The notes: a model not told the origin generated them from the sequence alone. 64,000 nt of DNA from a bacterium (GCA_965207065.1 OZ242260.1:448001-512000), one strand, 5' to 3'; positions 6,571-48,181 are shown, counted from the first letter of the stretch. Program-made: numbers and translations.

Positions 6571-8319
6571 TCATCCTTTCTGTGGAATCACAGGCAGCAA
6601 CACGTGGGACGGACACGACGGGCCGGTGTGAAGCGTCACCTTCCCGCCGAAGAGTTCCGTCGGCCTGTCTTCTTTCAGGTCGTGCTTGAAGGGCCCGACG
6701 CCGTAATAGACGCGGCCCGATATCTTGGGCGCGGACGGTTCATAACCCGGCCAGACGTAATCGCGCCCCCGGACGCTGATCGCCAGGCGGTATTCCTTCG
6801 GAATGACGATGGAGGTGGGCCAGATTTCCACATCCAGTTCGTATATCTCGCCCGGCGTCAAAGGCTGAATCTCATCGTGCGTGTGGTAAGGCCGGTAGGG
6901 CAGCGTGAGTGATTCGTCGAGCTTTCGGTGCGAGGCCCTCAGCCAGCCGATGGCCACGGGCGTGTGCGGGTCGTTCGCGCCCCGGTAGACGATCTCGGTC
7001 ATGTCCGGCGTAAAGACGCGCAGGGTGAGGAACAAATCGGCGTCCGCCGTATCCGATGAGACGAATAGCTTGGCCGCCACGGGGCCGGTGATCTCGGTTT
7101 CCTCGGCAAAGGGCGGCGAGATGTAGATTAAGCCGTCGCCCAGGGCATCATAGGTCTTCGTCCGTTCGTTGGTCTGGGGTTCCGCCCGGAAGGTGCCGGA
7201 GCCGGAATGGAGATAATACTTCGTCCACTCCGTGCGCGCGATGGGCCACTCGCTCTCGGCGCGCGGCACGAATTTCTCGCCGGGATGCCGCACCAGAAGC
7301 TGGACTTTCGGCTGCTCCGCCCAACCGGTGTCCTCGCCCTTCAGGAAATGCCCAAAGAATTTCTTCTGAAGCGCGACGCCGTAATCGGTATAAAACTCCG
7401 TGAAGTGTTCCAGCCCGTGCATCTCCAGCCATTTCTGGTCGGTGGCCGATTGCACGAAGCCCTCCGTGTTGCCCCTGGGGTGCAGACCAACACCGCCCCA
7501 GTTGCCCGAGGATAAGAGCGGCACGTTGATTTTCGAGTAATCGGGCATGCGCGCGCGCCAGTAATCATCCACGAGGGGATGATCGATGATGTCCTGTCCG
7601 AAATCGCTACGGTTGGAAGCCAGTTCCTCTTCGCTCAGGTTGGCGGGGCCGGAAATCCAGTCGCCGTTGATGCGGCTCTTGATGCCTCGGTTTCCCTTTC
7701 CGTGCTGACGGGGGACGACGGCCTGGCGGTACCAGGTGTCCGAGAAGCGGCAGGCGATGCCGCCGTGGTGGGCGAGATCGCGGTAGAAATCGGCCGCCCC
7801 CTCCCAGACGCACATGGCGGCCAGGTGCGGCGGCTGGAGCGAGGCCACCTGCCACTGGTTCATCCCGTAGTAGGAGATGCCGTTCAGACCCACCTTCCCG
7901 TTGCTCCAGGACTGCACGCCCGCCCACTCGATGCAGTCGTAAAAATCCCTGGTCTCGCGCGGCGACCACACTTCCAGATAGCCCGGCGAGCGGCCGGCGC
8001 CCCGTGAGTCCACACGCACGCAGGCGTAGCCGTCGGGCACCCATTTCTCGGGGTCCACGAGCTCCCAGTTCTGGTATTTGTTGGTGGTGCCCATGACGGT
8101 CTCGGGATAGTCGTTCACCATCAGGCTCCACTGGTGGGGATAGCCGTCCTGCAGATGCAGCCATTTGCAGTAGGGGCCGTAGCTCATGATGACGGGGTAT
8201 TCGCCGTCGTCGTCGGGCCGGTAGACGTCGCAGCGCAGCACCACGCCGTCGTCCATCTCGATAGGCACGTCCCAGTCGATGCGCATTCCGTCTCTTGCCT
8301 CGCTCCTGTACTCGCTCAT
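6571..8319 (-). CDS. CocE/NonD family serine hydrolase, paralog 2
   Basis: Same motifs (GISYYG); colinear and similar to 4798-6543. Confidence 0.92.
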   Translation of the reverse strand: MSEYRSEARDGMRIDWDVPIEMDDGVVLRCDVYRPDDDGEYPVIMSYGPYCKWLHLQDGYPHQWSLMVNDYPETVMGTTNKYQNWELVDPEKWVPDGYACVRVDSRGAGRSPGYLEVWSPRETRDFYDCIEWAGVQSWSNGKVGLNGISYYGMNQWQVASLQPPHLAAMCVWEGAADFYRDLAHHGGIACRFSDTWYRQAVVPRQHGKGNRGIKSRINGDWISGPANLSEEELASNRSDFGQDIIDHPLVDDYWRARMPDYSKINVPLLSSGNWGGVGLHPRGNTEGFVQSATDQKWLEMHGLEHFTEFYTDYGVALQKKFFGHFLKGEDTGWAEQPKVQLLVRHPGEKFVPRAESEWPIARTEWTKYYLHSGSGTFRAEPQTNERTKTYDALGDGLIYISPPFAEETEITGPVAAKLFVSSDTADADLFLTLRVFTPDMTEIVYRGANDPHTPVAIGWLRASHRKLDESLTLPYRPYHTHDEIQPLTPGEIYELDVEIWPTSIVIPKEYRLAISVRGRDYVWPGYEPSAPKISGRVYYGVGPFKHDLKEDRPTELFGGKVTLHTGPSCPSHVLLPVIPQKG

Positions 8320-8466
8320 GTTTCGCCTTTCCGTGAAAAAGGTGGATCACCGTCGGTGATGTATTTGGGATTGGGGGAATATAACCGAGGGGGACTTAGG
8401 CGTCCAGATGGGGGGTATAAAAACTACAAATCAGGAGAATCAGCGGCGAAGGGATGAGACGCTGGT

Positions 8467-8706
8467 CTAATTCTCATCAAAAAATCCTTCTCGCAGACCA
8501 AATATGCGGATGATGTCCTTTTGATAACCTGGGAATATGGGAGTCTTCCCGCCATGATACGGAAGTGGGAAATGACGCTCCATACCGTCAATATCTGGAT
8601 GGTAAAGCATCCGATGACTACCCTTGCCGCGTCTTGAATAGACATTGAATCTGGGGTCAAAATCTCGCAGCAGCTTCAATAACTTCCTGTACTCAATCGT
8701 TCGCAA
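8467..8706 (-). CDS. hicA: HicA-family type II toxin (mRNA interferase)
   Basis: 79 aa, basic, GKGSH catalytic motif and P-x-H motif; TTG start 3 bp after the antitoxin stop. Confidence 0.75.
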   Translation of the reverse strand: MRTIEYRKLLKLLRDFDPRFNVYSRRGKGSHRMLYHPDIDGMERHFPLPYHGGKTPIFPGYQKDIIRIFGLREGFFDEN

Positions 8707-8709
8707 AGG

Positions 8710-9054
8710 CTATACCTCTGCGAATTTTTGCGGATCCACCCGGGGCAAGGGGACATCACAAGAAATGATGTCCGGGAGGCTTTGCGGGGGCTTCGATTTC
8801 AGGTGTCGCTTCACGCTATCACGTTTAACCGACTCATAGAGCGCATGATAGGAAGGCTCGGCGGGCACGAAAATCTCATCCAGGGTGTCGTGCTGCACGG
8901 CGAAAGATATCTGTGCCTCGACCGCTTCGGTGAGACTTTCCACCGCCTGATCTTGCGTTTCCCCATAGCCCCTGAGGCTCATATCCAGCGCGATCGCGCA
9001 CCACATCCCGTCTTCACGTACGACCAGAACACGGAGGGTATGGTTGAAATTCAT
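8710..9054 (-). CDS. hicB: HicB-like antitoxin (partial RNase H fold)
   Basis: EDGMWCAIALDMSLRGYGETQDQAVESLTEA matches the HicB N-terminal pattern; GAGGAG RBS. Confidence 0.7.
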   Translation of the reverse strand: MNFNHTLRVLVVREDGMWCAIALDMSLRGYGETQDQAVESLTEAVEAQISFAVQHDTLDEIFVPAEPSYHALYESVKRDSVKRHLKSKPPQSLPDIISCDVPLPRVDPQKFAEV

Positions 9055-9189
9055 TCGTGCGTGAACTCCTCAATTTTGTTCGTTGATCGTTTGTAGAAAC
9101 CGCCAATACCATTGCGGCTCATACAGGCGCATAGCTTACATGGTTTTATGAAGGTTCGCACCCGTCGCAATTTTGGCCCTCCCCCCCCA

Positions 9190-9762
9190 TCACTCCACCT
9201 GCTCCTCGAGCTTCCGGGTCGCCTCCTCGACGATTTCGCATACCTTGTCCATAATCTCGGGGTGCTCGCGGAACGACTCGCGCACCTCTTTCACGATCGC
9301 CAGCTTGGCGGCGGCGAAACCGTCCTCGTACTGGAGCCTCAGCTTCTCGGCCGATATACGGCTGCGCTCGAGCCCGTTCACCATCCGGGCGAGTTTCTCC
9401 GGCGTCAGGCGCTCGAAGGATTCCTTCCCCATCTGCGAGACGGCCTCGACCGCCTGCGTCATCAGCATCCGCCGCGCGGCCGCGGCCACCTTCTCTCCCG
9501 GGTCCCTGCCCTCGCCATCGTACGCCATGACTTCCTCGATCAGCTCATCCACCATGGCTTCCACCCGCCTGGTCTTGCGGATACCCTCTAGCAGGCGATT
9601 GTTGCGCGTCCCGATGGAGCCGAGCGTTATCTTCTCCCCGGTCTCCTTCTCGAAAGCCTCGGCCACTTCCTGGTAGGTCTTCCCCTCAGCGAGCATGGTA
9701 TCGACGATTTTCTCCGCGCCATATTCCACTACTTTCGATCTGCGCCCCCGCCTCCTCTCCAT
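9190..9762 (-). CDS. Mu gp27-like (DUF3486) protein, putative small terminase subunit
   Basis: N-terminal GRRSKV...TYQEVAEAF...ITLGSIG pattern of Phage_Mu_Gp27; translationally coupled to the gp26-like gene. Confidence 0.75.
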   Translation of the reverse strand: MERRRGRRSKVVEYGAEKIVDTMLAEGKTYQEVAEAFEKETGEKITLGSIGTRNNRLLEGIRKTRRVEAMVDELIEEVMAYDGEGRDPGEKVAAAARRMLMTQAVEAVSQMGKESFERLTPEKLARMVNGLERSRISAEKLRLQYEDGFAAAKLAIVKEVRESFREHPEIMDKVCEIVEEATRKLEEQVE

Positions 9763-10094
9763 TACAGATCCCCCACGAGGATGTCCGGCGAGGCGGATAC
9801 GGCGCCTTCGAGCAGGCCGCGCCCCTTGCGGGTCAGGTGCGCCTCGTAATCCGTCAGCAGGCGGCCGAACCCGCCCGGGGTGCGCTTTTCCACCAAACCC
9901 CGCCCGGCCAGATCGTCCACGAAGGCCTCGAGCGTCTCGCGGCCGAGGGGCGCGCCGTCCTCATGGTGGCCCGCCTCGCGCAGCGCGCTCCAAAGGAGAA
10001 GGCTCCCCACACTCGATTTCTCCTGAAATGCATTCTGGTAATAAAGCGTCTTCAAAATGTCGCCGCGCAGGACGCGGGCCGCCAGTTCGTTCAC
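9762..10094 (-). CDS. Mu gp26-like winged-helix protein
   Basis: R-x-x-IL-x-x-L...L-x-x-x-GLV...LT-x-x-G-x-x-x-x-EG pattern; directly upstream of gp27-like as in Mu-like phages; GAGGAGG RBS. Confidence 0.65.
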   Translation of the reverse strand: MNELAARVLRGDILKTLYYQNAFQEKSSVGSLLLWSALREAGHHEDGAPLGRETLEAFVDDLAGRGLVEKRTPGGFGRLLTDYEAHLTRKGRGLLEGAVSASPDILVGDL

Positions 10095-10239
10095 GATAAG
10101 ACACCTCCTCGATAACTTTCATTCCGGCGCGCCGGACGCCATCCGCCGTAAGCCAGGCCTCTTCCACCCACTGAAACATCTCCTCGATGACTTTCACCCT
10201 GAAATGCCAAACATCCCCCCGTGCGCGGGGACATCCGGC

Positions 10240-10290
10240 AGTATAGAAGGCGGCGCGGGTTCGGGGGGTGCGGCAAATGCGGGCAAATGC
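10240..10290 (-). promoter_or_regulatory. Putative activator-dependent ('late') promoter of the gp26-gp27 operon
   Basis: Minus strand GCATTTGCCC-GCATTTGCCG, 25-bp spacer, TATACT; no -35 box. Confidence 0.65.
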
Positions 10291-10352
10291 AGGGCCTTTG
10301 CATTGAGAAAAAGACTTGCGGGTTGCACAATGCCGCCCGAGGAGGACGTACG

Positions 10353-10757
10353 ATGCGCTCCAGCGCGCCGACAACCGCCGCACTCGCCATACTCGCGCTA
10401 TGGTCCCTGGGACTTTCAGTCGCGCCGGCCTTCGGCCACGGGGAGGAGGAAATCCTCCTGTTCGCCTATCTGGCGGAAGAACGCAACCTGCTCAGGATCT
10501 CGACCGCCATCGTGGGCGGCATCATCCTGTCGATGGGCGCCTTCATCATCCAGCAATCACGCGCCGAGGCGAGGGAGAGCGACCGGGCCGAATTCACGGG
10601 CTTCCGGGTGATATTGCCGGGGCTGCTCGTCACCTGCCTGGGCGTCGGCGTGCTGTTCACGGCCGCCTTCATCCTGCCCGAGCAGATCAAGATCGTGCAC
10701 GACCATCCCCTGGAGCACGTCGAGACGAAAACCACGAAAAAAAGAAGCGGCCCGTGA
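10353..10757 (+). CDS. Hypothetical exported/membrane protein (signal peptide plus two hydrophobic helices)
   Basis: GAGGAGG RBS before ATG 10353; APAFG cleavage-like site; upstream TTGAGA-17-CACAAT. Confidence 0.6.
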   Translation: MRSSAPTTAALAILALWSLGLSVAPAFGHGEEEILLFAYLAEERNLLRISTAIVGGIILSMGAFIIQQSRAEARESDRAEFTGFRVILPGLLVTCLGVGVLFTAAFILPEQIKIVHDHPLEHVETKTTKKRSGP

Positions 10758-10826
10758 GGGTCGGGCATCCCCAGGGGAATGCCCGATGAAAGGGGCCTCT
10801 TTATTAGGGGTGGAGGGGACGCCCCT

Positions 10827-10971
10827 CTCTGCTGAAAAAAGCAACCCCCCCTACCCCCCCTTAACAGGGGGGTAAAGGCGATACCCCCCCGACGAGGGGG
10901 GTGGAAGAAAAGCCCCCCTGACAAGGGGGGTTGGGGGGTTACTCCTTTGACAAAGACTTTTCAACAACCCC
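10827..10971. mobile_element. MITE-like cassette with poly-C/poly-G hairpins
   Basis: Ends CTCTGCTGAAAAAAG and GACTTTTCAACAACCCC; internal CCCCCC-N-GGGGGG stems. Confidence 0.55.
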
Positions 10972-10996
10972 CAGGCCCTCCCCGCGCAAGCGTTTC

Positions 10997-11422
10997 TCAC
11001 CGCGTCTTTCCCGTGAGTTTCTCGACGGTGCGAAACGCGCCCAGACCCAGCATCCCCAGGGTGAGTTCGAGAAGTCCCTCCGCCGAGACGGGATAGGGCG
11101 CGAGCTCGCCGCTCATCAGCACCTGCCGCGTCCAGAGCCAGGCGCCCAGGGCGTACTGGGGGATGAAATAAAACGCGAGCGATACCCCGCAGGTCCACAG
11201 GATGAACGGCCTGCCGCCTGCGACGAACACGCTGCGGTGGGCGGCTTCGATTTTATTGATCTCGTTCTGGGCCTCTAAGGGCCGCATCATCAGCTTTTGC
11301 TTGATCGCCTCGGCCGCGCGCCGCTCATCGGGCGTTTCGACGAACCTGTCGATGACGTTGGCGACGCCCTCCGCCGCCGTGACGACGCCGCCGCCGATGA
11401 GCTTTTCCAAAAAGGCCATCAC
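10997..11422 (-). CDS. 3TM-type holin (GTA_holin_3TM / DUF3154-like)
   Basis: IDRFVETPDE, INKIEAAHRSVFVAG-x-RPFI-x-W, LGMLGLGAFRTVEK signature; overlaps the endolysin stop. Confidence 0.85.
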   Translation of the reverse strand: MMAFLEKLIGGGVVTAAEGVANVIDRFVETPDERRAAEAIKQKLMMRPLEAQNEINKIEAAHRSVFVAGGRPFILWTCGVSLAFYFIPQYALGAWLWTRQVLMSGELAPYPVSAEGLLELTLGMLGLGAFRTVEKLTGKTR

Positions 11423-11832
11423 GCGCTCCTCATGCTATCGGCGACCCTTCCCGCCCGCGCGGGGAGGTCCCTCGCGTAAACCGAATCGAGCGCCTCCGAT
11501 GCCGCGCGCGCATAATCCCCCTCCGCGAGCGCGGCCCACATCTTCCTGAACCCCAGGAGGTTCGGCACGCCCATGTTGTAGGCCATGTTCAAGACGGCGC
11601 GCCGTGCTCCGGGCCTCAGATTCTCGTACACCTCCCCCACACGCGAGTTTTCGAGTTCGCGCCCCATCAGAGACAGCCGATGCCGGAGGAGCAGTTCGGC
11701 TTCGGCTTCCGATATCCCGTCTTCGAGCAGCGTTCCGTAGCCGATGGTCTTCTTGCTCCTGGCGTCGAGATACACCACCGGCACGAAACCCTCCTCGCGC
11801 TTGATCTCCTCTACGAGCACGTCGGTGAGCAT
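11419..11832 (-). CDS. Phage endolysin, T4-lysozyme-like (GH24)
   Basis: EEG...YLD...TIGYG catalytic E/D/T pattern; NMAYNMG, FRKM, ALDS, RA-x-R. Confidence 0.9.
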   Translation of the reverse strand: MLTDVLVEEIKREEGFVPVVYLDARSKKTIGYGTLLEDGISEAEAELLLRHRLSLMGRELENSRVGEVYENLRPGARRAVLNMAYNMGVPNLLGFRKMWAALAEGDYARAASEALDSVYARDLPARAGRVADSMRSA

Positions 11833-12050
11833 GATTTCTCCTCATTCACAAGCGAATCCCCGGCTTTGGCCACCTGTTGCAGGACGCGCAGGAGCGCCGC
11901 CGCGCCCTTGCGCGCGCCCGAGCGTTGCGCATAAGCCTGACTCGAGGCCAGGACCCGTCCGTTCCTCGCACGAACGCGGAAGCGATGCCGACCGGATCTG
12001 TCCCGGAAAATCTCGACGGGGCGATGCTTCGCGTTCTTTACGGCCGCCAT
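11811..12050 (-). CDS. YegP/DUF1508 family protein
   Basis: EIFRDRSGRHRFRVRARNGRVLASSQAY...A-x-KG pattern. Confidence 0.75.
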   Translation of the reverse strand: MAAVKNAKHRPVEIFRDRSGRHRFRVRARNGRVLASSQAYAQRSGARKGAAALLRVLQQVAKAGDSLVNEEKSCSPTCS

Positions 12051-12187
12051 ACATAACCCCCCAGGAAAAAGCCCAGGCTCACGAGAAATGCGCCCACGGC
12101 GATGAGGCGCAGGACGGTATGTTTCTCCTTCGCCCAGCGCCACAGGAAGGCGTCCGTTCTTTTTTCGATTTCATTTTTCTCTGACAT
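12038..12187 (-). CDS. 49-aa single-pass membrane protein, first gene of the lysis operon (below the ORF-track cutoff)
   Basis: GAGGAG RBS, ATG 12187; MSEKNEIEKRTDAFLWRWAKEKHTVLRLIAVGAFLVSLGFFLGGYVWRP*; overlaps the next start. Confidence 0.7.
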   Translation of the reverse strand: MSEKNEIEKRTDAFLWRWAKEKHTVLRLIAVGAFLVSLGFFLGGYVWRP

Positions 12188-12253
12188 GACTCTCCTCTCT
12201 CAGATAGCGAAATCCCGCGCGCCGCCCGTGGGCGATGCGTCTCGACGTGAGAG

Positions 12254-12304
12254 ATTCTAGGCCTTGATCCCGCCGGGCCGATGACGGAAAATGCGGGCAA
12301 CTGC
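12254..12304 (-). promoter_or_regulatory. Putative activator-dependent ('late') promoter of the lysis operon
   Basis: Minus strand GCAGTTGCCC-GCATTTTCCG, 25-bp spacer, TAGAAT; same geometry as 10240-10290. Confidence 0.65.
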
Positions 12305-12465
12305 GGGGTGATGCGCGTTCGCCCGCCCGCGACAGGAAAAGAACGCGTCCCCCCGCGCCGGATGCGCCTCTCGACACCTTCATTCGTGACGCGCGAGGGA
12401 CGTTTGAACCCGTTAAGAAGACGATGCGCCAAGCAGCGCATGCCGCCAAGCACAGGAGATGAACC

Positions 12466-12954
12466 ATGAAAAAACTGACCGCCATCGCCCTCATCGCCGT
12501 ATTCAGCCTGGGACTCGCCGGGTGCCGCACCGATGGAAGCATGGACAAACAGACCGGCGGAGCGATTCTCGGCGGAATCGCGGGCGGTCTGATCGGCTCG
12601 AAGGTCGGCAAGGGCCGGGGCCGCAAGGCGGCAACCTTCGCAGGCGCGGTTCTCGGCGCCCTCGTGGGCAGCTCCATCGGAGCGCAACTCGACGAGCGCG
12701 ACCGCCTGCTGATGGGGCGCAACACGCAAAAAACCCTCGATCGCGGCAAGACGAACGTGGCCGGCGCATGGGTGAACCCCGACACGGGCAACCGGGGAAC
12801 CATTACGCCCAAGCGCACCTACCGGGTGCAGAGGGGCTCGACCACCCGCTATTGCCGCGAGTTCCAGCAGACCATCACGGTGGGCGGCAAGACCGAGCGC
12901 GCCTATGGCCGCGCCTGCCGGCAGCCCGACGGAAGCTGGAAAATCGTCAACTAG
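12466..12954 (+). CDS. Glycine-zipper lipoprotein, 17-kDa surface antigen (RT0821/Lpp0805) family
   Basis: Lipobox LAGC, glycine zipper, WVNPDTG, CREFQQTI, GRACRQPDGSW. Confidence 0.9.
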   Translation: MKKLTAIALIAVFSLGLAGCRTDGSMDKQTGGAILGGIAGGLIGSKVGKGRGRKAATFAGAVLGALVGSSIGAQLDERDRLLMGRNTQKTLDRGKTNVAGAWVNPDTGNRGTITPKRTYRVQRGSTTRYCREFQQTITVGGKTERAYGRACRQPDGSWKIVN

Positions 12955-13005
12955 GCCCGCGCCGCTCAAGGAATTACATTCGGTTTCGCCGGTGAGGTGC
13001 GTCTC

Positions 13006-13404
13006 ATGAAGAAGCGTATCTGCGCGAGCGTGGCGTTCATGTTCTTCGTATCCGGTTGCGCGGGTTCGGGGCCCAACCCGGTGGCGCGCTACACGCCTGC
13101 CGATGAGAAGCGAAACTGCGCCTCGCTCAAGTCGGAAATCAAGGCCATCAAGAAGGACATCGCGAAAAAGACGACCGAGCGAGAGAACAAGACGTTCCAG
13201 AACCTCACCCTGGGCGCTGCAGGCGTATTCCTGGTCGTTCCGTGGTTCTTCATGGATCTGAAGGGCAAGGAAGCGGGCGAGGCCGAAGCGCTCGAACACC
13301 GAAACGCCGCACTACGCCGGGTCGCCTTCGTCAAGGGTTGCAACGAGCCGCTTCCGGTCGTCACGCATCAGAGAAAGCCCAAAACGGAAGGAAAAGCGAA
13401 ATAG
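13006..13404 (+). CDS. Hypothetical lipoprotein
   Basis: Lipobox VSGC; D-x-x-x-x-C-x-x-L-x-x-E and PWFFMD segments; C-terminal KGC. Confidence 0.7.
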   Translation: MKKRICASVAFMFFVSGCAGSGPNPVARYTPADEKRNCASLKSEIKAIKKDIAKKTTERENKTFQNLTLGAAGVFLVVPWFFMDLKGKEAGEAEALEHRNAALRRVAFVKGCNEPLPVVTHQRKPKTEGKAK

Positions 13405-13487
13405 ACGCAAGCGCGGTTCGAGCCCCCTTTTCTGCTTTGCCTTATACCCTAGAAACATATTCGCCGCCGTACTACAGGGGTCACGTC

Positions 13488-14339
13488 ATGCCCAGAAACA
13501 ACTCAAAAAATCTTTTCATCAAGTCAATTTTCATCGCCGCCTTGATGCTCAGTTCAGTAAGTATCCCTCGCGCGGACGCCAGAGAATGCACCTATGGCCC
13601 CTACACGGGGCGCTGCCGCGACATCGGGCTCATGCGCTCGGTCAAGCGCGACGCGGAAAAACGCGTCTCCGCACGCTCCATCCTCTGGGTGGAGGCGGGC
13701 TATCTCTCGGCTGACGAGGCGAGCGATCTGCACCAAAGAATCGACGCAGGGATAGTGGCCGTCGAGAAGTTTCTGGGATTCAAGTTCTCACGCGAGGCCT
13801 ACGGGCAGGAGAAAATCGAGTTCTTCGTCCACAGCCGGCGCGCGCCCTCCCACACCATCACGGCCTACAGTCCGCGAAAATACATGCACCCCGTGGTGTT
13901 TCTCTCCTACGCCAAAGGAAAGAGAACGCCCTATCTCCACGAGACGGTCCACATCATCGCCTGGGACTGGAACACGCTCTGGTTGAAAGAAGGCCTGGCG
14001 GTTCACCTGAACGACCGCCTGGGCGGCTACGCCGCCTTCCCCAACTTCGGCGAGTCCGTGGATGTATTCGCGGGCCGGGTGCTCGCGCGCGAGTTTCCGC
14101 CCGCTACGAACGCGCTCGACCTGGTGGGCGAGAACGGAATTCCAAAATTCGGGGACCGGCGCGTGCGCCGCATGTTCTACATTCTCTCGGGCTCTTATGT
14201 GGCCTATCTCCTGCGCGAGTGGGGGGTGAGTAAGTTCATGCGCGTCTACGCCGCCAAGGACGCGGAGGCCGCGATCCTCAAAGAGACGGGAAAACCCGCG
14301 TGGCAGTGGAAGGAGGCGTGGCTGGGCGGGGTGAAGTAG
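13488..14339 (+). CDS. Secreted zinc metallopeptidase-like protein (clan MA)
   Basis: Signal peptide; HETVH followed by WLKEGLA (HEXXH plus downstream E). Confidence 0.65.
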   Translation: MPRNNSKNLFIKSIFIAALMLSSVSIPRADARECTYGPYTGRCRDIGLMRSVKRDAEKRVSARSILWVEAGYLSADEASDLHQRIDAGIVAVEKFLGFKFSREAYGQEKIEFFVHSRRAPSHTITAYSPRKYMHPVVFLSYAKGKRTPYLHETVHIIAWDWNTLWLKEGLAVHLNDRLGGYAAFPNFGESVDVFAGRVLAREFPPATNALDLVGENGIPKFGDRRVRRMFYILSGSYVAYLLREWGVSKFMRVYAAKDAEAAILKETGKPAWQWKEAWLGGVK

Positions 14340-14400
14340 GTCAATCCCGACCGGGGAGGGATTGTGAGTATCGAGAGAGGAATTGCGAATTCACCAAAAG

Positions 14401-14430
14401 AAAAGCCCCCCGGATTTCCCGAGGGGCTTT
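14401..14430. terminator. Bidirectional rho-independent terminator
   Basis: AAAAGCCCC...GGGGCTTT stem between convergent genes. Confidence 0.6.
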
Positions 14431-15169
14431 ATTTCATATCGGTCTTCTCTGCTAGAAGCCGGGGTCCTCGTCGTGTGTGTGGAGCATCGCTTGGTCTCCT
14501 TTCAGCGGCCAGGTAATTACAAAACCACCTAAGTGGTTGAAGTATTCCACTTCCGAGATAAATTTCAAGACCTTTGTAGAGACGGTTGCCCCTTCGGTTT
14601 CTCAGGTCTGCAATCCATGGCTCGAATACGTCATAATAGCGTAAGACATTTGTCTGAAACAGTTCGCGGATGATGGCTTCATTGACAAAGCCTTTATCGA
14701 CCAACACCGCCAAGTCTTCGAGATAATTCAAAACATTCGTTATGTTCAATTCGAGAATTTCATCATCCTTGATTTTCTCCTGTATTATTCTCAGCCTCTC
14801 CTCTCTCGGCTTGGCCGCTATGGGTTTGATCAGCCCGATGACGGCTTTTTTCGAGTCGAAAAAACTTGCGGTGTTCCATTCAGAGGTAAGGGACATCGTG
14901 CGGGTCATTTGCTCGGATTCCACATTCGCATAAACGCTTTGGGCAATATAAAAGGCGCTGACAATCGCGGCTGCGGCGCCGACGGCAATGGCGATAAACG
15001 TCGCCAACTCCTTATGAGCAGGCAAGAAGAAATAGACACCTACAATCACACCGACGAAGATAAAGGCAACCACGCCAATATGAACCGTGAACCTGCGCTC
15101 GAATTTAAGATTGAAATCGAATGCCTTGGAAACTTCTCTCGCCAATTGCGGACCCTCACACGGACACAA
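14429..15169 (-). CDS. DUF4760-like membrane protein, probably frameshifted near the C-terminus
   Basis: Two N-terminal TM helices, VLNYLEDLA...G-x-x-NE, FEPWI-x-x-x-R; visibly more AT-rich than flanks; start uncertain. Confidence 0.65.
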   Translation of the reverse strand: MCPCEGPQLAREVSKAFDFNLKFERRFTVHIGVVAFIFVGVIVGVYFFLPAHKELATFIAIAVGAAAAIVSAFYIAQSVYANVESEQMTRTMSLTSEWNTASFFDSKKAVIGLIKPIAAKPREERLRIIQEKIKDDEILELNITNVLNYLEDLAVLVDKGFVNEAIIRELFQTNVLRYYDVFEPWIADLRNRRGNRLYKGLEIYLGSGILQPLRWFCNYLAAERRPSDAPHTRRGPRLLAEKTDMK

Positions 15170-15344
15170 CCATCCGCCAACTAATTCGGGTCCTCTGGCA
15201 ACTCGTTTGAGTGGTTAATCGTGCGTCAACTATACCTTTTCGTCCGAAATCTCAACCTCACCCTGCATTGCTCCTGCCCAATAGCGATGGAATGGATTGT
15301 TGCTCCCTATCCATCAGCCACAACTCCACCTTGAGCAGTTGCAG

Positions 15345-15407
15345 CCCCTCCCTCATCAGCCGCAATCCCTCCCTGATCAGTCGCAACCCCTCCCTGATCA
15401 GTCGGGA
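15345..15407. repeat. Three imperfect 21-bp tandem repeats
   Basis: CCCCTCCCTCATCAGCCGCAA / TCCCTCCCTGATCAGTCGCAA / CCCCTCCCTGATCAGTCGGGA. Confidence 0.8.
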
Positions 15408-15411
15408 TTGA

Positions 15412-15801
15412 CTACTCCCGCATGCCGCCGAACTTCCATTCCAGATCGAGCGGGAAATCCTCCGTCATCTTCTCGACGTAGGCGAGCACGTCCTCGCGGC
15501 GGAAGCGCGCGCTTTTGAAGGAGGGGTGGTTCCCGGGCTGCCGGACGCCCGCGCGCGGTGGCGGGCGGCGCAGGTAGACGGGCCGGAGGCAGGGCGCGTC
15601 GCTCGCGCAGTCCTCGGCGATGATGGCGTCGAGCGTGCGGTAGCTCTTATAACCGAGCACCCTGGCGAGCATGGGCTTGGTGAGAAACGCCTCTTCCTCG
15701 AGAATGCGGCGCGGGGTTCTCGGATCGAGCGGGGCGTGTTTCGTTCGCCTCTTGCGCCGCTTGCCCGCAGTCGTCTTGTCGCGGGGCTTTCCGGGCGGCA
15801 T
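15412..15801 (-). CDS. Excisionase/MerR-type (HTH_17-like) DNA-binding protein, candidate activator
   Basis: FLTKPMLARVLGYKSYRTL helix-turn-helix and ARFRREDVLAYVE wing motif; basic N-terminus. Confidence 0.6.
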   Translation of the reverse strand: MPPGKPRDKTTAGKRRKRRTKHAPLDPRTPRRILEEEAFLTKPMLARVLGYKSYRTLDAIIAEDCASDAPCLRPVYLRRPPPRAGVRQPGNHPSFKSARFRREDVLAYVEKMTEDFPLDLEWKFGGMRE

Positions 15802-16046
15802 CAGCAGAGCGCCTCTGTGAGCGGCGTGAGAGATACGTCGCGGCGGCGGGTTCTCCTGGCCCTGATGAGGGCGTCGGCGCGGGCGCGGGCGGATTCTACG
15901 TTCGGGAAGATGAGGCTTACGCTTCTCTCGCGTGCGAGGTCGCGGTAGACGAGAAGCGCCGCCTCTTCGGGGACGCCGAAGCCCTCGTCCACCAGATCGG
16001 CCGGCGTGCGCTCATGGGTTCCGATGAAGGAGACGGCCTCGTTCAT
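15801..16046 (-). CDS. Small phage-like hypothetical protein
   Basis: GGAGG RBS; TGATG coupling to the HTH gene. Confidence 0.55.
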   Translation of the reverse strand: MNEAVSFIGTHERTPADLVDEGFGVPEEAALLVYRDLARERSVSLIFPNVESARARADALIRARRTRRRDVSLTPLTEALC

Positions 16047-16288
16047 GAAGACGCCCCTCCCGGGAACAGATGTGGCGCACTGCCGATGCGGCGCAATAAA
16101 AACCCGGATGACCCGCGCGGTCTTGAAGTTGCGATGGTTTCGGAGGGGGGCGCCTCGCGGGCGGTTCGAGACGCCGCGTTCGGTGGGGAAGAAGGTGGGG
16201 TATTGCGGGACGGATCATCCGGGCGAAGCGAAATTCCGAAAATATCGATAAATTTAGATAAATTGGCGGGGTTTTTCGATATATTCAC
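16043..16288 (-). CDS. Possible small leader protein (low complexity; may be non-coding)
   Basis: AAGGAG RBS before GTG and ATGA overlap with the next gene, but Pro/Ser-rich and overlapping a DNA motif. Confidence 0.3.
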   Translation of the reverse strand: MNISKNPANLSKFIDIFGISLRPDDPSRNTPPSSPPNAASRTAREAPPSETIATSRPRGSSGFLLRRIGSAPHLFPGGASS

Positions 16289-16385
16289 GTGATCTCCTTA
16301 ATTCCTTATAAGTAGCTCATAATAAAAGAGATAACCTGTTCATCCGCCTGTTCGCGATATTCTTATTCACATATCAGGCATCGGC

Positions 16386-16414
16386 AATATATCTATATAT
16401 AACTATAATGTCAA
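16386..16414 (-). promoter_or_regulatory. Near-consensus sigma70 promoter for the HTH operon
   Basis: TTGACA-17 bp-TATATT; overlapped by the inverted repeat ATATAT-CT-ATATAT. Confidence 0.7.
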
Positions 16415-16494
16415 CAAAATTATTCAGAAATAATTATTCGAGGAGTACGAACGGATAAATCATTGATCAGAAAGGAGATATGGAGGGAGTGGGG

Positions 16495-17379
16495 TTAGTC
16501 GAGTTCCCTGCCCAGAAGATCGATGAAGCGCCTCACGCCGCCGTGGAGGGGCTTGTCGCGCCTGTGGACGAGGCCCAAAGGCCGGATGATGCGCTCCCCC
16601 TCGAAGGGCAGCACCGCCAGCGTGTTCATGGCCCGCTCATTATGAACCGCCGAACCGGGCAGAATGCTCACCCAGGTGTCGATGAAGAGCGCTTCCTTGA
16701 TGCTCTCCACGTTGTCGAACTCCATCACGACTTCCACGCCCACACCCGCCTTGCGCAAGACCCTGTCAATCGCGTTTCGTATAGCGAGATCGGCATCGAA
16801 CGCCACGAAGGGCTCGCCCGCGAGGTCGGAAACCCTTACTGCGTGGCGAAATGCGAGCTGGTGCCCCGGATGCGAGACGAAGAACATGGGCTCCTCCTTG
16901 AAGGGCACGACCCGGAGCGCCTTGTCCCGCGGGGGGTAAGAGAGGATTCCGATGTCCGCCGTATCGTCCAGAACGGATTGCACCACCTTCTCGGGGTGGA
17001 GGCATTCAAGGCGAACACGCGCCTGGGGATACAGGGATCGGAACCGCTGCATGTAGGCGCCCATCTGGTGAAGCCCCACCGAGTAAATGGCAGCGACGTG
17101 CACATGGCCGTGCACCTCGCCGATGCCGTGTGATATTTCCGCGCAGACCTGGTCGAATTCCCCCAGCATCTTTCGGCACGCCTCGTAGAAGCGCGCGCCT
17201 TCTTCGGTGATGCCGAAGGGCCGCTTGCTCCTGTCGAGCAACACGACGCTCAAATCCCCCTCGAGCTGGCGAAGCGCCTGACTCGCTGCGGACTGGGTTA
17301 CGCCGCTTTGAGCGGCTCCCTTGGAAAAGCTTCTCTCCTGGATGATGCGACAATAAAGCCTCAAGGTTTCGGTATTCAT
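16495..17379 (-). CDS. LysR-family transcriptional regulator, divergent from gltBD
   Basis: SFSKGAAQSGVTQSAASQALRQLE HTH plus LysR substrate-binding domain. Confidence 0.93.
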   Translation of the reverse strand: MNTETLRLYCRIIQERSFSKGAAQSGVTQSAASQALRQLEGDLSVVLLDRSKRPFGITEEGARFYEACRKMLGEFDQVCAEISHGIGEVHGHVHVAAIYSVGLHQMGAYMQRFRSLYPQARVRLECLHPEKVVQSVLDDTADIGILSYPPRDKALRVVPFKEEPMFFVSHPGHQLAFRHAVRVSDLAGEPFVAFDADLAIRNAIDRVLRKAGVGVEVVMEFDNVESIKEALFIDTWVSILPGSAVHNERAMNTLAVLPFEGERIIRPLGLVHRRDKPLHGGVRRFIDLLGRELD

Positions 17380-17564
17380 GAAAAAAGACTACAGTATAAA
17401 TAAATCTAATGCAATATATTAAAAATTTTAGTTTGTCTTATTATTTAATGCGTGTTATACTCAAAGTCCGTTTCATGGAAATCATCATGCGAGGTCCATA
17501 AGACGCTCTCAGGAGTTCCCCGGAGAATGGGCAAACGGGGAGTTTTCCTGAAATTTCTCTCAGA

Positions 17565-22131
<4,567 letters not shown>

Positions 22132-47967: not shown

Positions 47968-48181
47968 TTGGGTGCATCCACCATGCTGCATCGTGTCGCG
48001 CATTTTCCCGCAATTGCCGCGCCCGTGTCTCCCTGGCAAGAGGTATACCAACATACCGGGCGCACGGGCAAGGAGCGTCTCGGGCATCCCGTTTTTCCAT
48101 CAGGCAAATCTGAAAAATAAGATAAATTTCGATAAATTCACGAGGTTTCTCGATAAATTAAGGAAATTATAACATATTGTA

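Follow-up and report, generated by a model that had tools for sequence, protein, structure and literature searches.

The window analysed here is a stretch of 64,000 nucleotides (nt) of DNA, G000:C1:448001-512000, from G000, a single-contig genome of 4.48 Mb from a Nitrospinota genus. Between positions 9190 and 16414 it carries three minus-strand units of phage-type genes, namely a lysis operon, a gp26-gp27 operon and a regulator operon (p81-hth129), and our subject is the larger, dispersed system to which these units appear to belong. An initial sequence-only reading had described the three units as intact, and their open reading frames (ORFs), ribosome-binding sites (RBSs) and overlapping stop and start codons were all confirmed. 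The genomes compared are all metagenome assemblies, several of which, G000 included, are single contigs with the same layout. Selection is expressed as dN/dS, the ratio of nonsynonymous to synonymous substitution rates. The features of the three units, in window positions, are:

Lysis operon
12254-12304, minus strand: promoter of the shared type, GCAGTTGCC-C-GCATTTTCC, 26 nt, TAGAAT (read from the sequence)
12038-12187, minus strand: TM49, first gene of the operon, 49 amino acids (aa) with one transmembrane (hydrophobic) segment; dN/dS 0.39
11811-12050, minus strand: YegP-like protein (DUF1508); Pfam 6.9e-9; dN/dS 0.57, the least constrained
11419-11832, minus strand: endolysin of the phage lysozyme family; Pfam Phage_lysozyme 9.5e-11, phrog_7 5.2e-18; dN/dS 0.22
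10997-11422, minus strand: holin of the 3TM family; Pfam GTA_holin_3TM 3.1e-11, phrog_3427 3.3e-24; dN/dS 0.12

gp26-gp27 operon
10240-10290, minus strand: promoter of the shared type, GCATTTGCC-C-GCATTTGCC, 26 nt, TATACT (read from the sequence)
9762-10094, minus strand: "gp26", 110 aa, predicted lineage-restricted winged-helix DNA-binding protein; model pLDDT (predicted local distance difference test) 92.5; dN/dS 0.16
9190-9762, minus strand: gp27-like (DUF3486), small-terminase-like protein, in 20/22 genomes; dN/dS 0.25

Regulator operon
16386-16414, minus strand: sigma-70-type promoter TTGACA-17-TATATT, 11/12 consensus positions, kept in the alignment of related loci
16230-16285: AT-rich near-palindromic repeat of 55 nt in the operon leader, 46 blastn matches in G000, itself included
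16043-16288, minus strand: leader ORF of 81 aa with RBS AAGGAG and an ATGA overlap with the p81 start, putatively coding, otherwise an RNA or DNA element
15801-16046, minus strand: p81, a small protein and the first clear gene of the operon, in 14/15 related loci; dN/dS 0.31
15412-15801, minus strand: hth129, candidate transcription activator, possibly a winged helix of the excisionase/AlpA/Cox type, in 20/22 genomes; dN/dS 0.19

In the lysis operon, the endolysin, 3TM holin, YegP-like and TM49 labels given earlier agreed with Pfam and PHROGs matches and, for TM49, with its single hydrophobic segment. The start of the holin gene overlaps the endolysin stop. The reading frame of the YegP-like gene stays open as far as 12143; of the possible starts, 12050 is the likelier. 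The gp26-like and gp27-like labels fared unequally. gp27 matched Pfam Phage_Mu_Gp27 at 30.2 bits, barely above the cut-off of 28, and phrog_426 ("terminase small subunit") at 8e-11; it is single-copy in each genome where it was found, mostly at 85-92% identity. gp26 matched no family, and its assignment as a homologue of Mu gp26, which had rested on position alone, was dropped. Its model resembles PadR/MarR/TubR-like folds (E about 1e-3), and a profile search of 1.84 billion proteins gave 12 representative matches, none obviously from phage; only a few Nitrospinota-like sequences make up the family.

The regulator operon had been described as a helix-turn-helix (HTH) operon behind TTGACA-17-TATATT. 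The operon and its promoter were found at 16414-16386, but the HTH identity is at best putative: p81 and hth129 matched nothing in Pfam, PHROGs or NCBIfam, and hth129 gave only sub-threshold leads to HTH_17, excisionase and Cox. The hth129 model was poor (pLDDT 64), and a fold search returned no match at E up to 0.001. The leader ORF matched neither a Pfam family nor an Rfam entry, and an Rfam scan of window positions 8300-17600 yielded zero matches. Among the products of this operon, hth129 appears to be the best candidate for an activator, because its distribution exactly matches that of the system. One genome carries hth129 in two copies about 1.7 kb apart (G022:C1:4188432-4190544). A reading of the locus as a defence system was also considered and was dropped, PADLOC giving no significant match.

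The upstream regions of TM49 and gp26 share GCATTTGCC-C-GCATTTGCC, followed by 26 nt and a -10-like hexamer. This 19-mer occurs in 59 copies in G000 with up to 2 mismatches (reversed-sequence control, 0), always with the same spacing to a -10-like hexamer, and in 98 sites across the 4.48 Mb with up to 3 mismatches. The motif lies about 101 nt upstream of the first lysis gene in 11/11 related loci and upstream of gp26 in 10/14, and upstream of p81 in 0/14. The proposal that the three units have matching promoters was therefore borne out for the lysis and gp26-gp27 operons but not for the regulator operon, which has its own sigma-70-type promoter.

We then listed the ORFs behind all 98 motif sites, and this was the route to the virion genes. 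The sequence-only reading had reported regulatory, lysis and packaging-initiation genes without a virion and had predicted terminase, portal, capsid and tail genes scattered elsewhere. For the window, the absence held: tblastn with the proteins of the system and of the Microcystis phage Mae-JY22 gave no matches there beyond the known genes. For the genome it did not, and the predicted genes were found, sharing both the motif and the presence/absence pattern of the window units:

G000:C1:439504-440562: large terminase ATPase, 352 aa; phrog_675 7.3e-50, Pfam GpA_ATPase 2.6e-15
G000:C1:438866-439507: terminase nuclease-like ORF, 213 aa, with an ATGA overlap with the ATPase ORF
G000:C1:437514-438863: portal, following the nuclease-like ORF; phrog_10963 3e-46
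G000:C1:425956-428034: protease-capsid fusion, 692 aa; phrog_29592 3.5e-131, Phage_capsid_4 7.4e-47
G000:C1:2480133-2486844: distal-tail operon of six genes, the last tape-measure-like, 2.03 Mb away

The terminase-portal unit lies 17 kb away and the capsid unit 29 kb away. The capsid fusion is followed by six genes down to 422101, including a neck protein (phrog_5, 8e-13) and a tail tube (Phage_tube_2, 3.3e-14), and the tape-measure-like protein matched phrog_1535 at 9.4e-8. The nearest Atlas clusters of the nuclease-like ORF are viral, one of them named GpA endonuclease (score 0.94). Searches of solved structures with both terminase halves matched none, and a phage search with the long ORF across the terminase gap gave no match; both halves are nevertheless kept in 12/12 loci with a dN/dS of about 0.2. 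Pfam searches of G000 with Portal_Mu, Terminase_6N, Phage_sheath_1, TerL_ATPase and Phage_Mu_F found nothing, the Portal_Mu controls being silent as well; these families do not cover the proteins of the system. The units lie at 422-464 kb and at 2.48 Mb of a single contig, separated by conserved host genes, and no integrase, replication or transposition genes were found adjoining them. All units except the regulator operon begin behind the shared promoter type, and in relatives the motif stands upstream of the terminase in 11/12 loci, of the capsid in 12/12 and of the distal tail in 8/8.

A further head module, reached through Phage_capsid and Phage_portal matches, was considered as the source of the missing virion genes and was dropped, its relatives being present in 3/22 genomes only, at 30-60% identity:

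G000:C1:3877896-3884851: unrelated head-only module with large terminase, HK97-type capsid, prohead protease, adaptor, head protein, portal, HNH endonuclease and neck terminator

It adjoins a host aminotransferase gene and may be a capsid-forming island or a prophage remnant.

The existence of this second, clearly unrelated module at 3.88 Mb, and the fact that the motif heads about 90 other sites, would both suit a reading in which nothing connects the window genes with the distant structural operons except a widespread host promoter type, the window units serving only host lysis or regulation. We consider this very improbable. At a density of 98 sites in 4.48 Mb, the 420 nt in front of any single gene should contain about 0.005 motif sites, yet 5/5 units have one, and the 3.88 Mb module is restricted to 3/22 genomes. 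The pattern of inheritance and the gene order, described below, tell against it as well.

Presence and absence were counted in 22 species genomes of the genus. gp27, hth129, the capsid, the terminase ATPase and two distal-tail proteins are each present in 20/22 genomes, and gp26 in 19/22; units up to 2 Mb apart thus show an identical 20/22 pattern, which is hard to reconcile with unrelated elements. In G009 and G010, all seven searched proteins are absent, as is the holin. Phage genes are cleanly absent from the syntenic site in G009, whose counterpart in G010 retains fragments of gp27, YegP and TM49. In a tree of three flanking host proteins, G009 and G010 fall on opposite sides of a split (support 0.998), each beside system-bearing genomes; their place in separate clades, each next to carriers, implies that the system was lost twice.

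Where the system is present, its arrangement is stable. Fifteen loci share the order gltB, lysR, p81, hth129, a variable segment, lipoproteins, TM49, YegP, endolysin, holin, membrane protein, gp26, gp27, a second variable segment and cocE, and the structural genes with their intervening host genes are syntenic in 12 and 8 loci. The dN/dS values range from 0.12 to 0.57 for the window genes and from 0.13 to 0.45 for the structural genes, compared with 0.08-0.10 for flanking host genes and 0.08-0.29 for flanking and interspersed host genes together. No broken genes were seen in the 12 and 8 loci examined, in which more than 25 genes are intact throughout; apparent stops in two genes fall upstream of the true start codon. 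The GC content at third codon positions (GC3) of the phage-derived genes (0.72-0.88) equals that of host genes, and because of this match the phage-derived genes appear to be long resident in the host chromosome. Sister genera carry gp26-gp27 and p81-hth129, and no complete prophage lies at the locus in the sister genomes examined.

These data also bear on whether the genes are a fixed prophage remnant in slow decay, in which the survivors serve no common function and the host has at most taken over individual ones (the endolysin and holin, say, or the DNA-binding proteins). The lack of adjoining integrase, replication and transposition genes would fit such a remnant, as would the weak constraint on YegP (dN/dS 0.57) and the broken portal, terminase-nuclease and distal-tail genes of G023, a sister-genus genome. 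We find decay scarcely credible, however, given the intact genes in every examined locus with dN/dS values like those of host genes, the disappearance of all units together on two independent occasions, and a shared promoter motif that is conserved between species. The earlier view that a host-maintained, dispersed system fits better than a decaying prophage is upheld by the synteny, the purifying selection and the co-loss; gp27 is present in most close relatives and relaxed selection was not seen.

Regarding ancestry, homologues of the portal, capsid, neck and distal-tail genes lie in one colinear cluster in distant Nitrospinota (G032, G027). The nearest sequenced phage by capsid is Mae-JY22 (PP438414.1), whose portal, capsid, three neck proteins and tube are colinear with the system and which carries DUF3486 and Gam genes. 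Its portal is 40% and its capsid 34% identical to those of the system, while its terminase is unrelated (E up to 0.01), and gp27 is 30% identical to a protein of Bacillus phage BalMu-1. The Mu-like late order, that is, lysis, gp26, gp27, terminase, portal, head and tail, is common to both sides of the comparison, in the system on the minus strand and interrupted by host genes. That the lysis, gp27, terminase, portal, capsid, neck and tube genes lie on one strand, colinear with phage genomes, is a further argument against unrelated elements.

The remainder of a Mu-like phage was not recovered. No tblastn match in G000 was found for 54/61 Mae-JY22 proteins, including the transposase, Gam and other early proteins, a result that decay would also predict; the sole early exception is a ubiquitous HU-like protein, which matches several places in G000. 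A search of G000 for the DDE_2 transposase (PF02914) found nothing, its controls being silent too. In contrast to Mu-like phages, G000 gave no match to Portal_Mu (silent controls again) or Mu F, and the system genes are broken up by host genes and spread over 2 Mb. The capsid reached 20.3 bits against 20.1 for Mu-like_gpT, with no single stretch passing. The Mu-like label therefore stands for the order of the late region but not for transposase and early genes, Portal_Mu or Mu F, and the scores of gp27 and gpT are borderline. From the colinear cluster in distant Nitrospinota, the Mae-JY22 order and the missing early genes, the probable ancestor is a tailed, Mu-like phage, of which the late region was retained and became dispersed.

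Taken together, we consider it reasonably probable that the three window units belong to a single phage-derived system of six or more transcription units that resembles a gene transfer agent (GTA) and would have been fixed in this Nitrospinota genus before the genus diversified. In the mechanism we propose, a product of the regulator operon, for which hth129 fits best, would activate the five motif promoters together; capsids and tails would then assemble, gp27, the two-part terminase and the portal would fill the heads with DNA, and the holin and endolysin would lyse the cell and release the particles. Because the genes lie up to 2 Mb apart among host genes, such particles could not carry their own gene set, and the element would for that reason work like a GTA; a gene set too dispersed for its particle to carry is the defining logic of a GTA as set out in part of PMC11841831. 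A GTA-like particle, a tailocin-like particle and programmed lysis had all been proposed for the locus, and the first fits best because the terminase and portal are conserved.

The same domesticated particle system might instead be kept for PBSX-like killing or for regulated lysis of a subpopulation in the host sponge, with packaging as a by-product. Some defective phages, PBSX for one, serve as bacteriocins although they package DNA. Conservation, co-loss and the promoters speak equally for this use, and the lysis cassette ranks with the most strongly constrained parts of the system, with the holin at a dN/dS of 0.12. We nevertheless regard it as rather unlikely, since gp27, both terminase halves and the portal are under purifying selection (0.13-0.25), which is easier to understand if filled heads matter, and no receptor-binding or toxin-like component was recognised in the system, although the distal-tail proteins are mostly without a family.

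Several observations weigh against the GTA-like interpretation. All the genomes are metagenome-assembled, and the particles, their packaged DNA and its transfer are predicted. The dN/dS values are pairwise medians by the NG86 method over related, non-independent genomes, and motif copy numbers come from six genomes (G000 and 5 others). TM49 was not found at the loci of G001, G007, G016 and G020; lysis genes as a whole were not found in the G016 locus, and YegP is likewise missing from the other three. G001 also lacks gp26, although it keeps the rest. hth129 remains a candidate activator with no significant family or fold match. Five distal-tail proteins, two capsid-operon proteins and p144 match no family, and because of these eight structural proteins the completeness of the tail is in doubt. 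The N-terminus of gp27 has an HTH-like stretch, read from the sequence and conserved in the alignment (A4), and the small terminases of known GTAs are described, in the passages of PMC11841831 that treat them, as having no DNA-binding domain. Finally, since about 90 further motif sites lie in a repeat family, the "regulon" extends far beyond the phage genes.

This repeat family accounts for 94/98 motif sites. A copy is about 170 nt long and consists of the motif, the -10 hexamer and about 100 nt more; many repeats are followed by the 55-nt near-palindromic element that also occurs in the regulator-operon leader, and many copies of that element sit 100-150 nt downstream of motif promoters. Motif copies number 59, 65 and 31 in three system-bearing genomes and 1, 2 and 0 in G009, G010 and G023. 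Because copy numbers drop to 0-2 where the system is lost or decayed, the motif repeats live and die with the system. It is conceivable, if quite unlikely, that the 30-65 repeats per genome are dispersed initiation sites read by gp27, or regulator sites spread by the particles, with packaging starting from many chromosomal places. If so, the repeats would be part of the machinery and more than mere promoters, and genome-wide transfer by this GTA would rely on seeded, sequence-specific sites instead of a non-specific terminase. Elsewhere in the window, a motif copy at 48000-48018 has 2 mismatches; its -10 hexamer is poor, and no convincing gene follows. Downstream of two other motif sites lie ORFs of about 392 aa (G000:C1:1556448-1557626 and 2370065-2371246), whose N-termini look P4-type-integrase-like by eye.

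The plus-strand genes, the repeat resembling a miniature inverted-repeat transposable element (MITE) and the AT-rich gene reported between the phage units are present as described. The interspersed plus-strand genes are host genes, encoding a glycine-zipper lipoprotein, a second lipoprotein and a membrane protein, and they remain in genomes that lost the phage genes. The other neighbouring features are:

10760-10996: MITE-like (or repetitive extragenic palindrome-like) C/G-run hairpin repeat between the convergent membrane-protein and holin genes, 186 blastn matches in the genome
14340-15412: AT-rich DUF4760 gene flanked by 22-nt inverted repeats (14340-14361 and 15391-15412); GC3 0.53
8467-9054: HicAB toxin-antitoxin pair, after gp27
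G000:C1:436774-437353: HigBA-like pair, after the portal

The hairpin repeat at 10760-10996 may act as a two-way terminator. The DUF4760 gene, beside which 21-nt tandem repeats lie at 15312-15395, looks like a mobile cassette; a match covering at least half of the protein was found in 5/15 related loci. The HicAB and DUF4760 genes have a GC3 of 0.47-0.53 and only some relatives carry them, and owing to this low GC3 and patchy presence they are later insertions. In G005, G015 and G017, partial copies of the gp27 3' end lie downstream of gp27. The 3' ends of the gp27 and portal units, as these arrangements suggest, are an insertion hotspot.

About half of the words sampled from the stretch occur in runs labelled as sponge metagenomes. 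Run X19, labelled as a viral metagenome and lacking a cellular-DNA control, contains a close relative's version of window positions 8000-17600 in 30/30 bins at a depth of about 10-20, which is no more than a loose lead to packaged host DNA. Contigs of an RNA library (X20) reach 8/30 bins, and one contig of 159 nt spans the gp26/gp27 junction with zero differences, which is not proof of transcription.

A literature search combining "gene transfer agent" with Nitrospina/Nitrospinota found, by title or abstract, nothing on such a system, and the present one is therefore a candidate GTA in a phylum with none reported. To our knowledge, few independent GTA lineages are known. Their recognition is difficult, as they resemble phage remnants, are split over loci and have several origins, according to the part of PMC11841831 devoted to this question. 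Here, membership of the system can be read from three genomic signals: the promoter motif, the presence/absence pattern and two natural losses. Tracing a promoter motif offers a practical route to scattered GTA loci, and the system provides a clean case for asking how a host dismantles and rewires a prophage.

Compared with known particle systems, PBSX-type particles and tailocins likewise consist of structural and lysis genes retained by the host under host control. Those systems are contiguous gene clusters. Tailocins lack capsid, portal and terminase, whereas all three are conserved here. The known GTAs (RcGTA, BaGTA, VSH-1, Dd1 and VTA), as described in the relevant part of PMC11841831, resemble our system in having phage genes for heads, tails and packaging but none for replication or integration, in having loci far apart with separate lysis genes and regulators, and in being inherited vertically within a clade; they are released by cell lysis, which here is predicted from genes alone. 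With RcGTA, only the holin family is shared, Pfam GTA_holin_3TM being named after the RcGTA holin. The capsid is of the Phage_capsid_4 / Mu gpT-like type and not HK97 PF05065, a family whose only match in G000 is the unrelated 3.88 Mb module. The system further differs from known GTAs in its GpA-type terminase, which two separate ORFs encode, in the DNA-binding HTH that gp27 appears to retain, and in that even the head, tube and distal-tail genes stand at separate places. It lies in the phylum Nitrospinota and would represent an independent origin of a GTA.

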